The notes below the pieces were generated by a model, which was not told the DNA's origin, made no database searches, and saw only the letters and a program-made list of their open reading frames with translations. A stretch of DNA of 32,544 nt from positions 1-32,544 of the IMG/VR virus record IMGVR_UViG_3300048599_000816; one strand, written 5' to 3'. Source of the stretch: a virus. Of this stretch, positions 3,494 through 17,403 are shown one piece after another. The position numbers were made by a program, and so were the translations under genes. How positions within the stretch are numbered: the first letter of the stretch is position 1; every line of letters begins with the position of its first letter.

Positions 3494-3538
3494 GTTTGTA
3501 TCTCCTTGAAAGTTTGTTTGTTGTTTTGTTTGATAGTA

Positions 3539-3569
3539 ACTATATCGAGAGAAAATAAAAAACTGCCAG
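3539..3569 (-). promoter_or_regulatory. conserved promoter-like motif; its TGGCAG is the 3' arm of a terminator hairpin
   Basis: minus strand reads CTGCCAACACTGGCAG-TTTTTTATTTT-CTCTCGATATAGTTACTATCA. Confidence 0.55.
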
Positions 3570-3579
3570 TGTTGGCAGT
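3553..3579 (-). terminator. rho-independent terminator (6-bp stem CTGCCA/TGGCAG, loop ACAC, TTTTTTATTTT)
   Basis: Seen in sequence on minus strand downstream of gene 3758..4072 and the GC-rich repeat A. Confidence 0.6.
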
Positions 3580-3589
3580 GTCATGAGCA

Positions 3590-3735
3590 ACTCACGATAT
3601 AAGCCGCTCACGTAGCGCTTGAGTGCGTACTTCCGCTTACATGCGCTCATGCTCGCACACTTGTACGCACATTCGCTTGGCTCTAGTGCGCTTAAGTATA
3701 GGCGGCACTCACTGGCTACCTTCACATGAATGATG
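3590..3735 (-). repeat. GC-rich repeat element copy A (core ATGTGAAGGTAG-N3-GTGAGTGCC followed by ~100 nt GC-enriched sequence with AGCGCT/GCGCTTG)
   Basis: Shares ordered core blocks with copy B at 6000-6130; both lie directly 3' of a gene stop. Confidence 0.55.
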
Positions 3736-3757
3736 CAAGGGAATATTGTTGTGAATT

Positions 3758-4072
3758 TCAACAACCTGTAGCACCATAAAAATCACCATCAGTATCTGGA
3801 TTGTATTGACGTATGGTAGAAATATTGGGATTAAGCTCTGCCAAAGTATAGTAATCAGAATCACCTTCAAGAGTCAAACATTGATAGTAAATTTCGTTTT
3901 GAAAATTTCGTGTATTGCCATTAAAGAAAAACATAACGTTTGCAAAGTCACCTGTCTTATCCTCAGAATAAAAAACGTCATGTTTCTTGAGAGTTATTGA
4001 AGCAACTTTAGTTGCTATTCTCTGCTGTTCATCTTTATAAGCCTGTTGCTTTTTTGTAAGTTTCTTTGCCAT
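3758..4072 (-). CDS. hypothetical 104-aa protein
   Basis: ORF track; AAGGAGAGAGAATG RBS; motif upstream (4099-4130). Confidence 0.75.
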   Translation of the reverse strand: MAKKLTKKQQAYKDEQQRIATKVASITLKKHDVFYSEDKTGDFANVMFFFNGNTRNFQNEIYYQCLTLEGDSDYYTLAELNPNISTIRQYNPDTDGDFYGATGC

Positions 4073-4129
4073 TCTCTCTCCTTGGTTAGTTGATATATAC
4101 TATATCGAGAGAAGCACAACAAGCTACCA

Positions 4130-4453
4130 TCAAGACTTCAAGTAAAGCGCAAAAAGTTCAGGGAAGGTAGTTTCAAGTTGATTCAAACAACGCTTCTTAT
4201 GCAATTTCTCCGTAAGCTCTTCAAATGTCACACCATAAAGTCTCTTTGCAATATCGTCAAGCACACTAAAATGTGACACAGCACACTCAGGAAAATTCTT
4301 TACAACAAGTTCACCTACTGCTTTCCAATCAACTACAGCACTTGAAAAAATAATAGAACGTAAAAAACTTGCAATATCACCTGATCCCATATTCGTAAGA
4401 ACTGCAAGCTTCCTTGAAACAAACTCCTTAATCTCCTGCTCTGACCAATTCAT
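4130..4453 (-). CDS. hypothetical 107-aa protein
   Basis: ORF track; AAAGGAGAGTTATG RBS; motif upstream (4501-4533). Confidence 0.75.
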   Translation of the reverse strand: MNWSEQEIKEFVSRKLAVLTNMGSGDIASFLRSIIFSSAVVDWKAVGELVVKNFPECAVSHFSVLDDIAKRLYGVTFEELTEKLHKKRCLNQLETTFPELFALYLKS

Positions 4454-4541
4454 AACTCTCCTTTGTTTATTGATATGTGCTGTGCACCATCCTTTGGATG
4501 ACTACTATATCGAGAGAAAGCAACAAAACTACCAAAATAAT

Positions 4542-4577
4542 AAAGGCGCCCCAGAATTGAGCGCCTTAAGCCGGGCA
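4542..4577 (-). terminator. rho-independent terminator (AAGGCGC..GCGCCTT stem, TTTATTATTTT)
   Basis: Seen in sequence downstream of gene 4601..4879; followed directly by motif TGGTA-N17-CGATATAG. Confidence 0.55.
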
Positions 4578-4600
4578 TCACCCCAGCAACCGGAGAGAGA

Positions 4601-4879
4601 TTACTTATAATATTTTTTCAAGATTGCATTCAAATCAACTGTATCAGACACACCACGGATCACCGCTTTAATCGAACCCAGATGACAACTCACGATCACT
4701 TCATCAGAATAACGTTCCACGCGCTTTCCAAGCTCTTTAATCGGATTGGTAATTTCCAAAGCACGACCCTTAAGCACTGCCTTCTTTTCGCCCCGGATAA
4801 ACGTAACTGACGATTTCTTCTGTTCTACTGTAACGCCTTTGGGAAGAACGAGATCCTCGATAACGATTGCTTCAGCCAT
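4601..4879 (-). CDS. hypothetical 92-aa protein
   Basis: ORF track; AGGAGGATTTTTTATG RBS; two tandem motif copies upstream (near 4911 and 4983). Confidence 0.75.
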   Translation of the reverse strand: MAEAIVIEDLVLPKGVTVEQKKSSVTFIRGEKKAVLKGRALEITNPIKELGKRVERYSDEVIVSCHLGSIKAVIRGVSDTVDLNAILKKYYK

Positions 4880-4991
4880 AAAAAATCCTCCTGAATATTG
4901 TTGTTAGTTATATCGTTTCTTACCAGCTTCACTGCCAGGGTTTGTTTCACAAGTTGTTTTATTTCTTCCTGATAGTTACTATATCGTGAAA

Positions 4992-5303
4992 TTACGCCGG
5001 AATGCCAATCGCATTTTTACAACCAGCACATTCCTGCAAAGGATTATTACAAGTCTCAAGCTTACAAGTAGCATCTTCAGGATACTCTTGCTCTTCATCG
5101 CTAATATCGCTCTCAAGCGACTCCATTACTTCCTCAAGACATGGTCCATTAGACACATACTCGTTTGACACCTGCTTACCATACGCTTTCCATCGCTCAT
5201 AAAGACTTAAATTTGTACTTCTAAGCGCCTGATCAAATTCATTAAAAGCAGACTCAAGTCTTCCAGCAATCTCCTGTATTTCTTCAAATTCATCGCGTGT
5301 CAT
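4992..5303 (-). CDS. hypothetical acidic 103-aa protein
   Basis: ORF track; AAGGAGAGACTATG RBS; motif at 5329-5360. Confidence 0.75.
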   Translation of the reverse strand: MTRDEFEEIQEIAGRLESAFNEFDQALRSTNLSLYERWKAYGKQVSNEYVSNGPCLEEVMESLESDISDEEQEYPEDATCKLETCNNPLQECAGCKNAIGIPA

Positions 5304-5702
5304 AGTCTCTCCTTGTTTGTTGATAGCTACTATATCGTGAGAAACTCAGATGGCTGCCAGCAAATATACAAACGATATACTAACACGTACGTCCTTCCGT
5401 GCGTAGCATATCGGGGAAGTGTATCTATACAAGATCGTTAGACACAGTTTAGCACAAACAAAACAGCCCACCCATATATTATATAGGCAGGCTGCACTTA
5501 TAGGAGAGACGAATACTCGTGTTTATTTAATTGAAACTATTACCATCCTTGTCCTCTCAACTGTCGTATATTCTTTACCAACTTCATAACCAGCACCCTG
5601 ACGATCAGACATAAGAGAAAAAGTAAACTCCATACCCTTCAAATGACCTGTCAACATCCTCTTTGTTATCACCCATGTTCTCATCACAAACTCCTTTGTT
5701 GC

Positions 5703-5873
5703 TCAATACAATATCGCGAGATACCCGGCAACAGCCAACTGATTTTCTGCTTTAATACTTGAAGCTTCAGATATACAATCACTCTTCACTTCATCATTAC
5801 ATATATCAGCAAACTCACATATACTACAATCAATTCCCAACTCAATAATCTCTGCTTGCAAATTTCTTTCCAT
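5703..5873 (-). CDS. 56-aa Cys-rich protein (MERNLQAEIIELGIDCSICEFADICNDEVKSDC..)
   Basis: Not in track; AAGGAGAGAACATG RBS and motif upstream; hand translation. Confidence 0.5.
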   Translation of the reverse strand: MERNLQAEIIELGIDCSICEFADICNDEVKSDCISEASSIKAENQLAVAGYLAILY

Positions 5874-5999
5874 GTTCTCTCCTTGGTTGATAGAGACTAT
5901 ATCGTCTCAATGCAAACAAACTACCAACCAAATAATCTCTTTGCCTTCAGCCTGTGTAACAGAATCCATTATAATAGCAATCTGGTAATGTAAGTTTTC

Positions 6000-6130
6000 T
6001 ATGCGCGCGTATCGCGCTTGCGAGCTCATCCCTCGCTCGCTTATCACGCGTCGTATACACTTATACGTACATCGAAGCTAGCGAAGCTAGAGAGCATGCA
6101 CGGCACTCACCCTCTACCTTCACATATACT
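6000..6130 (-). repeat. GC-rich repeat element copy B (ATGTGAAGGTAG-AGG-GTGAGTGCC + GC-enriched tail)
   Basis: See copy A; lies directly 3' of gene 6150..6317. Confidence 0.55.
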
Positions 6131-6149
6131 TTCATTGGGAATTTATCGC

Positions 6150-6317
6150 TCATACCAATGCTAAAAACTCTTCCAAAGTACGAGCTGTTTCAAGTGCAAT
6201 TTTGAGATTCGCTATATCTTCTTCATTAATCACAGTATCTCGTTCCGGGCGTCCTGTAAGCTCAACAAAAATACTATTTGTTTTCTTCCTCGTTGATTTC
6301 TGCATTTCAGTCTCCAT
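6150..6317 (-). CDS. hypothetical 55-aa protein (METEMQKSTRKKTNSIFVELTGRPERDTV...)
   Basis: Internal ATG (M24 of track ORF 6150..6386) preceded by AAAGGAG and motif. Confidence 0.6.
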   Translation of the reverse strand: METEMQKSTRKKTNSIFVELTGRPERDTVINEEDIANLKIALETARTLEEFLALV

Positions 6318-6389
6318 AATCCCAACTCCTTTGTTAGATTTCATTTGGATATATACTATATCGTCATCATGCAACCCAACTACCATACA

Positions 6390-7260
6390 ATATATATCAT
6401 GCGCCCGAATTACTACTACAAAAGAAACGAAGCACGAGCGCCCATGCGCGAGTTTTTTTCATACACTTGCTACCTACAAGACAAGAATTGTTCCACGTGA
6501 AACATTTTTTTCACCCGGGCACATGTTTGCCTACAAGTGAATTTCTAGCGTAGCGTGCTCGTATCGCGCTCTTGTCATATACTCTTGCTTGAGCGCTCTT
6601 GTTCACTACCTGCACTTGTTCTCTTGTTTGCATGCGCATTTCCCTCATTTCTTATGCCCTGTCACCCGTATACTAAGTCGCAAGATGCGGGCAGCAAATA
6701 CCGGGCCTTAGTTTCTTATAAGCGTCCTGAAGTCTTAGTATCTATGTTTTGTCTTATAAGCGCCCGGAGACATTAGCGCCCAAGCAGTGGTACTTAAAGC
6801 GCTCTGGTGGTATATTGGTGCTTGTTGTATAGCGTTCTTGTAGCCCTGTACGTAGTAGCTAGAGTGTAGTAGAAGTAGATGATAGGTTCTTTTAAGGTTT
6901 TGTTATGTTTCTTTGATCTTGTGGTTTTTTTAAAGTAGAAAGTTGTTTTCAAGATATTTTTTTATAGTTGTTTTTGATTTTTTGTTGTTCCAGTGGGTTG
7001 TGTTGTTGTAAGCATGTAGAAGTAGAATTTTGTGGGTGTGTGTGGTGATGGGAGTGGGAATATTTAGATTTTCTTCTTTGATTGTTTCATCTATAGACAT
7101 TGTATCTTTTTCCATTCCGTAGTTTGTGAATTTGATGACAAGGGATTTGTGGATGATGAGGGGTGTGTGGGTTGAGTGTGCTAAACAAAACGCGTGGGGA
7201 ACTTAAGTCCCCACGTTTATAGAGGCAATGGAGGTATATGAATTGAAAAAGGAAAAGAGA
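6390..7260. other. ~870-bp non-coding region: two tandem plus-strand hairpin+T7 units each followed by GC(C/T)TACAAG, a GC-enriched block with GCGCTCT(T/G)G x3 and TCTTATAAGCG x2, then a ~450-bp G+T-rich (plus strand) tract with G-runs
   Basis: No credible ORF with RBS; strong strand compositional skew; seen directly. Confidence 0.5.
7183..7215 (-). terminator. rho-independent terminator (CGTGGGG..CCCCACG stem, then CGTTTTGTTT on minus strand)
   Basis: About 50 nt downstream of gene 7263..7901 stop. Confidence 0.6.
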
Positions 7261-7262
7261 GA

Positions 7263-7901
7263 TTACTTGATGTATGGTTTTGCTTTGCCGCAGAGTGTAC
7301 GAAGTCTTATGAGATTTGCCATGCCGTTGGCAATGCGGTAGAGTCTTTCACCGAATCCTTCTTTCATCGAGTATTTATGAGTTGTCATGAAGAATTTACT
7401 GAAGTCGGCTCCCATTTTTGCAACCAGTTCTTTTTTGAGTGTTTCATCTTCAAAGACTTCGGGACGGAGTATAACTGTAGAAGTTTTGATGACTTCGGTT
7501 GCATATTTGTCGCCCAGCAGAGTTTTCAGTGTTTCCTGGTCTTCTTTTTCCTGGGATGGTGAGAATTTGTCCTGGGTGATGAATGTGGCAGAAGTTTTTC
7601 CGTCGTCTGTGATGACCGTGTAAGAGCCGTGGAAGTCGTCTTTGAGACCATCGGTGTCCTGACGTTCAATGCAGTATTCAAGAAGTGGTCCTTCAGCTGC
7701 TCTCATGTTTCCTTCGGCTGCTTTGTATTCCTTTTTATAGCGAAGGAAGTCGATGAATTTGACTGACATATCTTTGTCAAGTTTGATGATGGGTTTGTCG
7801 CCTTTTTTGGGCGCTGAACTTGCTACGGTTGCTTCACCGAGCATTTGTTCGAACGATATTTCTTCGGGTCGGGTTGTAGTGGCTTTCTTTTTTCCTGCCA
7901 T
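7263..7901 (-). CDS. hypothetical 212-aa protein
   Basis: ORF track; AAGGAGATACAACAATG RBS; motif upstream (near 7938). Confidence 0.85.
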   Translation of the reverse strand: MAGKKKATTTRPEEISFEQMLGEATVASSAPKKGDKPIIKLDKDMSVKFIDFLRYKKEYKAAEGNMRAAEGPLLEYCIERQDTDGLKDDFHGSYTVITDDGKTSATFITQDKFSPSQEKEDQETLKTLLGDKYATEVIKTSTVILRPEVFEDETLKKELVAKMGADFSKFFMTTHKYSMKEGFGERLYRIANGMANLIRLRTLCGKAKPYIK

Positions 7902-10597: not shown

Positions 10598-10656
10598 AAG
10601 TCTCTCCTTTTTGTGATGATAGCTATATCGTGAGAAAGAGTGAGTGTGCCAAAGGA

Positions 10657-10690
10657 GAGCCGGTTTGAAGTCCCGGCTTTAGGAGAGAGT
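10657..10690 (-). repeat. 34-bp exact direct repeat copy 1 (GAGCCGGTTTGAAGTCCCGGCTTTAGGAGAGAGT), contains hairpin AGCCGG..CCGGCT
   Basis: Identical to 11316-11349. Confidence 0.7.
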
Positions 10691-11290: not shown

Positions 11291-11315
11291 CTTCTTACTC
11301 CATGTTAAAAAAGAA

Positions 11316-11349
11316 GAGCCGGTTTGAAGTCCCGGCTTTAGGAGAGAGT
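11316..11349 (-). repeat. 34-bp exact direct repeat copy 2; here followed by CTTCTTTTTT (terminator-like)
   Basis: Identical to 10657-10690. Confidence 0.7.
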
Positions 11350-11817: not shown

Positions 11818-11842
11818 GTTCTCTCCTTGTTTGTTGATAGTA

Positions 11843-11875
11843 ACTATATCGAGAGAAAGATGTTTAGTTGCCAAT
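11843..11875 (-). promoter_or_regulatory. conserved promoter-like motif (near-consensus copy: TTGGCA-N17-CGATATAGTTACTATCAAC)
   Basis: Seen in sequence upstream of the J-domain gene. Confidence 0.55.
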
Positions 11876-12526: not shown

Positions 12527-12547
12527 AAAGATCCCGCGACCTTCTCG

Positions 12548-12623
12548 AGCCTAAACAAAACGAGCCTTAGGTGTTTACCTAAGGCTCTAAAATTTGTGTG
12601 ACGCACTGTCCCGAACTGATTAA
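12548..12623 (-). repeat. ~75-bp 3'-UTR repeat R1 containing an 11-bp-stem terminator hairpin (GAGCCTTAGGT-AAAC-ACCTAAGGCTC + GTTTTGTTT)
   Basis: About 88% identical to R2 at 17329-17403; starts about 5 nt after the stop of gene 12628..13257. Confidence 0.7.
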
Positions 12624-17307: not shown

Positions 17308-17328
17308 ATCCTCCTATGACCCTCACGG

Positions 17329-17403
17329 GCCTAAACAAAACGAGCCATAGGAGATAACCTAAGGCTCTAAAATTTGTGTGTTGTAATGTCCCGAACTGAT
17401 CAA
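17329..17403. repeat. ~75-bp repeat R2 with terminator hairpin (GAGCCATAGG..CCTAAGGCTC), between convergent genes; overlaps the stop codon of 17400..17702
   Basis: About 88% identical to R1; hairpin flanked by A-run on one side and T-rich run on the other, so potentially a bidirectional terminator. Confidence 0.65.

Follow-up and report, generated by a model that had tools for sequence, protein, structure and literature searches.

A 32,544-nucleotide (nt) stretch of viral DNA (IMG/VR record IMGVR_UViG_3300048599_000816, positions 1 to 32,544; hereafter the window) carries two GC-rich intergenic islands, A and B, that constitute a real, conserved, non-coding and new feature, an uncharacterized family among phage intergenic regulatory elements. 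The two islands are paralogous, occur in five lineages and are transcribed together with the gene upstream of each; island A is followed by an intrinsic terminator and faced by an antisense promoter. We tentatively favor the reading, plausible though short of probable, that the islands are sequence-specific RNA modules of the gene strand that two early mRNAs carry in their 3' tails, perhaps as sibling regulatory RNAs derived from 3' untranslated regions (3'UTRs).

Two paralogous islands with a shared core

The initial annotation of the window had described two islands with a common core, each lying 3' of a stop codon, and the core, an ATTCCC box, the elevated GC content and the stops were all verified. 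The core, ATGTGAAGGTAG-NNN-GTGAGTGCC (24 nt with three free positions), has exactly two matches, at 3704-3727 and 6102-6125, both on the minus strand, which also carries almost all of the window genes; no further match with up to three mismatches was found in the window, and 100 dinucleotide shuffles gave none. The ATTCCC box lies at an equal distance upstream of the core in A and B. The islands start ~10-25 nt after minus-strand stops (TGA at 3758-3760 for A and TGA at 6150-6152 for B), and their GC content peaks at 0.53-0.54, compared with 0.37 for the window. When the copies were aligned with each other and further ones were sought genome-wide, as the annotation had proposed, homology was found over the whole island and only two copies were recovered. 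By nhmmer profile the homology between A and B spans ~155 nt (3594-3750 and 5992-6148), of which the core is only a part; the element is thus larger than the core. A third copy was absent from the window, from the ~39 kb that were examined of the 52-kb source contig (Ga0498943_002299, a JGI metagenome contig) and from the loci of relatives (nhmmer, E ≤ 10). Nor do the islands show homology to the other GC-rich non-coding stretches at 5345-5520, 6390-6840 and 1700-2370. The parts of the two modules and the signals that adjoin them are as follows.

3596..3757, minus strand: island A, whole module, 3' of the 104-amino-acid (aa) gene at 3758..4072 (nhmmer and alignments).
3739..3758, minus strand: upstream boxes of A, AAATTCAC (3751-3758, right next to the stop codon) and ATTCCC (3739-3744), both conserved between A and B when aligned.
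3703..3720, minus strand: sub-core of A, GGTAG-CCA-GTGAGTGCCG, invariant in 10 variants except at loop positions.
3606..3702, minus strand: body of A, GC 0.55, purine/pyrimidine (R/Y) alternation 0.65, GG+CC observed 3 times against 14.3 expected.
3601..3620, minus strand: terminal GC hairpin of A, AAGCGCU-ACGUG-AGCGgCUU, a consensus helix (alignment columns 144-148/171-175).
3552..3579, minus strand: intrinsic terminator ACTGCCAACACTGGCAGT plus T-run, directly after island A (terminator scan).
3572..3603, plus strand: antisense phage-type promoter TTGGCA-N18-GATATA, pointing into A; position weight matrix (PWM) score 22.4, in the range of genuine promoters.
5990..6149, minus strand: island B, whole module, 3' of the 55-aa gene at 6150..6317 (nhmmer and alignments).
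6137..6144, minus strand: upstream box of B, AAATTCCC (A/B alignment).
6101..6118, minus strand: sub-core of B, GGTAG-AGG-GTGAGTGCCG.
6003..6040, minus strand: B-type hairpins, GCGAGC-N9-GCUCGC (6020-6040) and the terminal GCGCG-AUA-CGCGC (6003-6017).
5965..6002, minus strand: conserved block after B, CATAGAAAACTT(A/G)CATT(A/G)CCAG ... TATAAT, with a gene-strand -10 hexamer that matches perfectly in each B lineage.

Neither the two upstream genes (104 aa at A, 55 aa at B) nor the two downstream genes (171 and 56 aa) are related to each other, and the island is therefore an independent module that was not duplicated along with a gene. None of these four flanking genes has an informative family match. 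At B, the mechanically called 78-aa open reading frame (ORF) at 6150-6386 on the minus strand contains its own promoter, with the CGATATAG block at 6363..6356; the true gene there most likely has its start codon in the ATG of position 6317 and a product of 55 aa, like the 55-aa proteins of relatives.

Conservation in related contigs

Related contigs were obtained through exact-protein look-ups with homologues of the island-flanking genes, which gave a comparison set of 10 distinct island sequences and one partial copy from five lineages. An A-type copy after the 104-aa gene and a B-type copy after the 55-aa gene are present in every lineage with enough sequence, so that both copies hold the same positions across the five lineages, a point that the annotation had marked for checking. 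In distant relatives, in which the 104-aa protein is 56-67% identical, the island is missing at the equivalent position. The exact core had 0 matches in IMG/VR, in the JGI metagenome collection as far as it is searchable or in GTDB genomes, and protein-guided scans of IMG/VR and GTDB genomes revealed no further locus; a protein-guided metagenome scan found a single locus, a duplicate of the L052 lineage. A looser 15-base sub-core had 33 matches in IMG/VR, which were dismissed as chance, all of them lying on unrelated high-GC contigs without the promoter motif. A blastn search against 50,697 phage records found no DNA-level match to a known phage, and the helicase of this phage is only ~30% identical to T4-like cyanophage helicases. 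A close relative was found in an activated-sludge assembly, and one window protein is also encoded on contigs of up to 427 kb.

The islands do not encode a protein

Both window copies share one open frame, FP..VKV..ECR, that overlaps the upstream stop (TTGTTGA in A, ATGA in B), from which one might read the islands as encoding a small protein translationally coupled to the upstream gene. In relatives this frame is broken between start and core by in-frame TAG or TAA codons (A copies of L004/L006 and of L052, B copies of L005/L004), with no conserved start after the stops. The B frame stops at 30 aa (6061..6153) and the A frame runs for 74 aa (3540..3764) across the terminator and promoter, both lengths as the annotation had listed them, and the variable NNN is out of codon register. 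Six-frame translation of the 10 variants showed each frame stopped in at least one lineage, leaving no frame on either strand open in all lineages; the annotation's view that the islands are not a protein was upheld, and the possibility it had allowed for, that they are coding in homologues, did not materialize. The small-protein reading is refuted by these comparative data and is almost certainly wrong. A selenocysteine insertion sequence or other readthrough signal was also rejected: the core lies ~37 nt from the stop, the copy designated B' uses TAA, and relatives without the island still end in TGA.

The core is nearly invariant and the body keeps its composition

The sequence GGTAG-N3-GTG(A/G)GTGCCG is nearly invariant, and ATGTGAA just before it is replaced in the A copy of L004. 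Core variants comprise the NNN positions, an A->G substitution in both L052-lineage copies and in L047, and TG->AA in one contig; all of these variable positions fall between two tetrads, GGUA and UGCC, which are complementary and never vary and which in the A sub-core could form a hairpin, GGUA[GNNNGUGAG]UGCC. At 7650-7670 in L004, the B core reads GGAAAGTGCC in place of GGTGAGTGCC, in an island that otherwise matches L005 exactly; the change could be a genuine loop variant that is tolerated, or it could come from misassembly. In the B core, 1 of 24 positions differs between lineages, compared with a divergence of 0.27-0.30 at four-fold degenerate sites of the adjacent genes. The divergence of the ~100-nt body across lineages, 0.33-0.36, is similar to that of the four-fold degenerate sites, and in the closest comparison the body is ~3 times better conserved than those sites.

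Every lineage maintains a body GC content of 0.50-0.57, an R/Y alternation of 0.64-0.68 (z 2.8-4.0, among the highest values in the window) and a ~5-fold depletion of GG+CC (in B, 2 observed against 15.2 expected; A as listed above). The pentamer AAGCG occurs 13 times in the pooled bodies against 0.7 expected, an 18-fold, one-stranded excess; on the gene strand the A body holds six RAGCG motifs (four AAGCG and two GAGCG), and AGC is far commoner in A than its complement GCT. In B, short palindromes are in excess (8 six-mers against 1.6 ± 1.2). Genome-wide, AAGCG is not enriched (27 and 38 per strand against ~22 expected by our own estimate), and a Chi-like AAGCG cluster was rejected because the motif is not over-represented at that scale. 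These measurements of divergence and composition bear out the initial statement that the core is conserved and that the body keeps composition and not sequence. The enrichment of AGCGCT and GCGC that accompanied that statement held in part: 31 of 40 GCGC sites lie in the first 8 kb, clustered in non-coding islands (2348-2362, 3615-3688, 6003-6014 and 6401-6799), but copy B is without AGCGCT. A perfect 6-bp GC hairpin, AAGCGC-TTTA-GCGCTT, whose word is repeated in the islands, lies at 2346-2362 on the minus strand just upstream of a promoter -35; L013 has a similar CAAGCGC-containing palindrome ahead of a promoter.

Transcription signals around the islands

No terminator was detected between the island and the upstream gene at either A or B, and the islands are therefore transcribed as 3' tails of the upstream genes. 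Two features absent from the initial annotation were found at A, namely the intrinsic terminator after the island and a conserved antisense promoter. The arms of the terminator double as two back-to-back -35 boxes, and L004 and L052 retain its hairpin and T-run but differ in the loop. The antisense promoter holds the only exact plus-strand match to the promoter core (-10 block) CGATAT[AT][AG], at 3572-3603, compared with 39 matches on the minus strand, 32 of which have a TTGGCA-like -35; it is kept in L004 (PWM 25.4) and L052 (19.1) with a varying spacer. Judged from these sequence signals, island A is very probably transcribed convergently. On the opposite strand of B, no phage-type promoter is present in any lineage. 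The block that follows B probably lies outside the island as such and serves the next gene as a promoter of its own.

The cassette TTGGCA-N16-17-CGATATAG-TTACTATCAAC..AAGGAGAGA..ATG precedes nearly every small gene, and a PWM scan located 37 minus-strand promoter sites (e.g., 2302-2341, 3530-3569, 4090-4129 and 11834-11873). These promoter-plus-ribosome-binding-site cassettes resemble the modular promoter cassettes in plastic regions of T4-type phages. The island core itself was considered and rejected as a sigma-54, extracytoplasmic function sigma factor or plus-strand phage-type promoter, as spacing and -10 positions vary across variants. A second plus-strand phage-type promoter lies at 5347-5381 (PWM 17.7; 25.9 in L052) and points at a conserved element at 5398-5428 on the plus strand, GTGCGTAGCATATCGGGGAAGTGTATCTATA, which is also found behind an antisense promoter in the distant relative L010; the plus-strand unit from this promoter runs towards a hairpin at 5463-5495 and is a candidate opposite-strand small RNA.

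RNA structure

RNAalifold applied to the 10 sequences gave a core hairpin, a helix P2 and a terminal GC hairpin, with 15 pairs together. The core hairpin, GGUA/UGCC, is invariant. P2 follows immediately on its 3' side and includes the pair types C-G/U-A/U.G and U-A/C-G/U.G; for half of its A-U pairs, other sequences have G.U, which on the opposite strand would give C.A mismatches. The terminal GC hairpin shows one U-A to G-C covariation between A and B, and its loop tolerates a 16-nt insertion (in L005, a 16-nt insertion lengthens the B terminal hairpin). Over the 15 consensus pairs, 95.9% of cells are paired, compared with 92.2 ± 1.2 in shuffles (1 of 500), and three pairs are changed on both sides. 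Family-specific folds include a closing helix between the island ends (AAUUCAC/GUGAGUU in A; AAUGAAAGU/ACUUACAUU in B) and a long hairpin over the B core, in which pairing between the window and L048 is kept through A->G plus U->C. The consensus energy is -19 kcal/mol for the gene strand and -7 kcal/mol for the antisense strand, conserved stems number five against one, and the minimum free energy (MFE) of single sequences is lower on the gene strand by 6-16 kcal/mol. A single-stranded fold of the gene strand is plausible on these computed structures.

The suggestion of a structured RNA in the initial annotation thus gains from a few compensatory changes and loses from unimpressive MFE z-scores and a costly consensus fold; the covariation analysis it had called for likewise gave pairing above that of shuffles but no robust common fold. 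The Rfam scan it had also proposed returned 0 matches at the gathering threshold in the window and none overlapping either island at E ≤ 5, and ARAGORN found 0 tRNA or tmRNA genes in the window.

Other elements in the window

Within an 870-nt non-coding stretch (6390-7260), TGTTCCACGTGAAACA at 6489-6504 on the plus strand is a perfect canonical chromosomal parS consensus, and all related contigs that extend over these positions have it at the same site; its presence points to ParB-type segregation or loading in this phage, which may be plasmid-like. Between parS and the gene at 7263..7901, positions 6830-7260 are non-coding and G/T-skewed, with a plus-strand GC skew of up to +0.8, and this stretch ends at a terminator-like hairpin (7193-7215). 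Iteron-like CTACCCTATCAA..CAACCCT repeats (1735-1774, 1849-1888 and 1900-2040) adjoin a non-coding stretch of GC 0.6, and GGCCCTCTAGAATACCTCCTGGAACCTGCACCAGGGCC of that stretch is found again, inverted, in the distant relative L013 (~1195-1235); the iteron-like region, where two convergent gene arrays meet, may be an origin. An 86-nt repeat with 86% identity (12538-12623 and 17318-17403) lies in each case directly after the stop of a different gene, contains a terminator hairpin, GAGCCTTAGG..CCTAAGGCTC, and represents a 3' module of recent duplication. A further repeat, intergenic, 40 nt long and 98% identical (10651-10690 and 11310-11349), AAAGGAGAGCCGGTTTGAAGTCCCGGCTTTAGGAGAGAGT, includes a small hairpin.

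Discussion

In the reading that we favor, the islands would be paralogous cis-encoded RNA modules, transcribed with the gene strand in the tails of unrelated early mRNAs. The 5' end of each module would carry a recognition element, an AAAUUC box followed by GGUAG-N3-GUGRGUGCCG and perhaps displayed as a 4-bp hairpin with a 9-nt loop, to be read by a trans-acting partner, either a protein or a complementary RNA. The body behind it would be rich in GC and form local hairpins, while its exact sequence drifts freely. At copy A, processing near the AAAUUC box, together with the terminator, would release a discrete RNA of ~170-200 nt, and the convergent promoter would produce a perfect antisense of that RNA, a regulator of this copy. 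The modules would most likely act as sibling 3'UTR-derived regulatory RNAs with a shared seed and divergent scaffolds; alternatively, they may act as nut/put-like elements on the transcribing polymerase. If both copies must match one partner, the same A->G substitution in both L052-lineage core copies is what would be expected. We infer that RNA, and not DNA, is the functional form, and that a trans partner and a processing step exist.

Several observations weigh against this reading. The partner, target and processing site are all putative. No terminator was found after B, which accordingly has no defined 3' end. The body changes at approximately the synonymous rate between the more distant lineages, and its GG/CC depletion, R/Y alternation and oriented AAGCG are atypical of ordinary structured RNA. 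Single-sequence MFE z-scores lie between -0.6 and -2.7, without significance for A; holding each sequence to the consensus structure raises its energy by 7.5-24.6 kcal/mol above its own MFE; and the core pairs with a different helix partner in each lineage. The covariation comes from 10 sequences of five lineages, and when pairing partners are slid by ±2 columns ~65% still pair, owing to the R/Y alternation of the sequence. A robust common fold is lacking, and the RNA-structure evidence is weak to moderate. The neighborhood is, moreover, full of DNA-level cis elements (parS and the iteron-like repeats).

It is a serious but less likely possibility, of which the initial annotation had named the protein-binding site, that the islands work as DNA-level cis elements. 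The asymmetric bipartite core GGTAG-N3-GTGAGTGCCG would be where a phage or host protein binds or nicks, and the body would supply a physical property or an oriented AAGCG array; candidate roles are Z-DNA, a sink for supercoils, a site for topoisomerase, a signal for initiation or priming on single strands, and a roadblock. Conservation of the core as sequence, with a free 3-bp spacer and no covariation, would fit such a role, as would a body that keeps composition and neither sequence nor fold, with its R/Y alternation, GG+CC scarcity, strand-asymmetric AAGCG and, in B, excess of short palindromes. A conserved canonical parS and iteron-like repeats lie nearby, and the window encodes a 724-aa GHKL-ATPase protein. 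However, the G.U-compatible and compensatory substitutions favor a single-stranded fold of one strand, a candidate binding protein was not found, AAGCG lacks genome-wide enrichment, and only two of the proposed sites lie in the examined part of the source contig. Were the functional product instead an antisense small RNA of the plus strand, the 3572-3603 promoter would read A backwards into the 3' end of the gene at 3758..4072 and control its mRNA, in the manner of lambda OOP RNA and other cis-antisense RNAs that overlap the end of a gene. At copy A, this dedicated promoter, convergent with the upstream gene, would yield an RNA complementary to the 3' tail and 3' coding end of that gene. This promoter is the sole exact plus-strand match to the -10 block, scores in the genuine range and is kept in three A lineages while its spacer drifts, and the second plus-strand promoter at 5347-5381 indicates that opposite-strand transcription units exist in this phage. 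Unlike OOP, the arrangement is confined to copy A, as B shares the core but lacks such a promoter in every lineage; the plus strand has no terminator beyond the core that would define an antisense RNA, and plus-strand folds are weaker (z +0.1 to -1.9), with G.U pairs lost. We regard this reading as improbable, and a plus-strand RNA more likely regulates island A than accounts for the existence of both islands.

It also seems improbable that the islands are copies, in decay and with no function of their own left, of a small palindromic module that was mobile or became duplicated. The comparison is with miniature inverted-repeat transposable elements (MITEs) and with mitochondrial GC clusters, as well as with the 3' modules of this phage, which duplicates such modules (the 86-nt repeat). 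Like yeast mitochondrial GC clusters and MITE-like REP, Correia and RPE elements, the islands are GC- and palindrome-rich, 100-160 bp long and intergenic in an AT-rich genome. Their ends are imperfectly complementary over 7-9 bp (AAATTCAC/GTGAGTT in A, AATGAAAGT/ACTTACATT in B), the module sits after unrelated genes and the body divergence is near neutral. In contrast to such elements, there are only two copies, syntenic in five lineages without presence/absence polymorphism or a sign of recent mobility; no target-site duplication is visible; the asymmetric core is far more conserved than synonymous sites; and the GC and dinucleotide biases are maintained against a 37% GC background. Two other repeat-associated candidates were rejected. 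Integron attC sites have terminal boxes R''(RYYYAAC) and R'(GTTRRRY) and fold as one imperfect hairpin; on reading, the terminal boxes are absent from the islands, and the MFE folds are multi-branched. A template/variable repeat pair of a diversity-generating retroelement, in which only adenines change and a reverse transcriptase is encoded nearby, does not apply either, as A and B differ at ~50% of positions with all types of change and the window is without a reverse transcriptase domain.

Returning to the RNA-module reading, the islands can be compared with bacterial sibling and 3'UTR-derived small RNAs, of which OmrA/OmrB and CpxQ are examples. As in sibling small RNAs, the islands share a near-identical short 5' segment and have diverged in the remainder. 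As in 3'UTR-derived ones, copy A forms part of an mRNA 3' tail with a Rho-independent terminator at its end, and an A/U-rich box, at which processing could occur, precedes the conserved segment. The islands differ in that copy B is without a terminator, in that the body is GC-rich, R/Y-alternating and GG/CC-free, and in that target, seed pairing, chaperone and processing are only putative. The lambda nut site has a boxA, CGCTCTTA, upstream of a boxB hairpin with a 5-bp stem and a 5-nt loop, and the HK022 putL/putR sites act as structured RNA of ~70 nt. Like lambda nutL/nutR and HK022 putL/putR, the islands are two co-oriented early-transcript elements that follow a short gene and lie upstream of terminators, with a short conserved box at a fixed distance from a small hairpin. 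Unlike nut, they have neither boxA CGCTCTTA nor the boxB stem but AAATTCC and a possible 4-bp stem with a 9-nt loop, and unlike both systems they stand in one gene array and not in two divergent operons, with a promoter of its own before nearly every gene. The neighboring small proteins match no Pfam or PHROG family, and no arginine-rich, N-like antiterminator was identified; the 104-aa protein has a basic N-terminus. By this analogy, the islands appear to resemble nut/put elements less closely than they do sibling and 3'UTR-derived small RNAs.

The ops/JUMPStart element, with the 12-mer GGCGGTAGCGTG, recruits RfaH (PMC5995543). The island core likewise has GGTAG and then GTG on the non-template strand of a transcribed intergenic region and is orientation- and sequence-specific rather than structure-specific. 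It differs from ops in reading GAAGGTAG-N3-GTG, that is, GGTAG-N3-GTG and not GGTAG-N1-GTG, and in having an A at the equivalent of ops C3; no NusG/KOW domain was found among the 67 window ORFs (57 distinct) that were scanned.

The rule followed by the body (no GG/CC, R/Y alternation and one-stranded AAGCG) survives sequence turnover and is not explained by current models of RNA structure or protein-binding sites. At the outer edge of what we would consider, the islands would be a new kind of phage cis element in which an asymmetric, sequence-specific core is joined to a ~100-bp body selected for nothing but a GC-rich, R/Y-alternating, GG/CC-free composition with oriented AAGCG repeats. If so, selection would act on the physical state of the nucleic acid and not on fold or code, that state being Z-form or other non-B DNA, or an R-loop or priming platform fed by the convergent promoter at A, and the element would cooperate with parS and the iteron region close by, be it in replication, in segregation or in the evasion of defence. 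Function is not known for any protein in the island region. Should the islands prove to be sibling regulatory RNAs or elements that modify the polymerase, they would offer a first handle on early-gene timing in an uncultured lineage of large activated-sludge phages.

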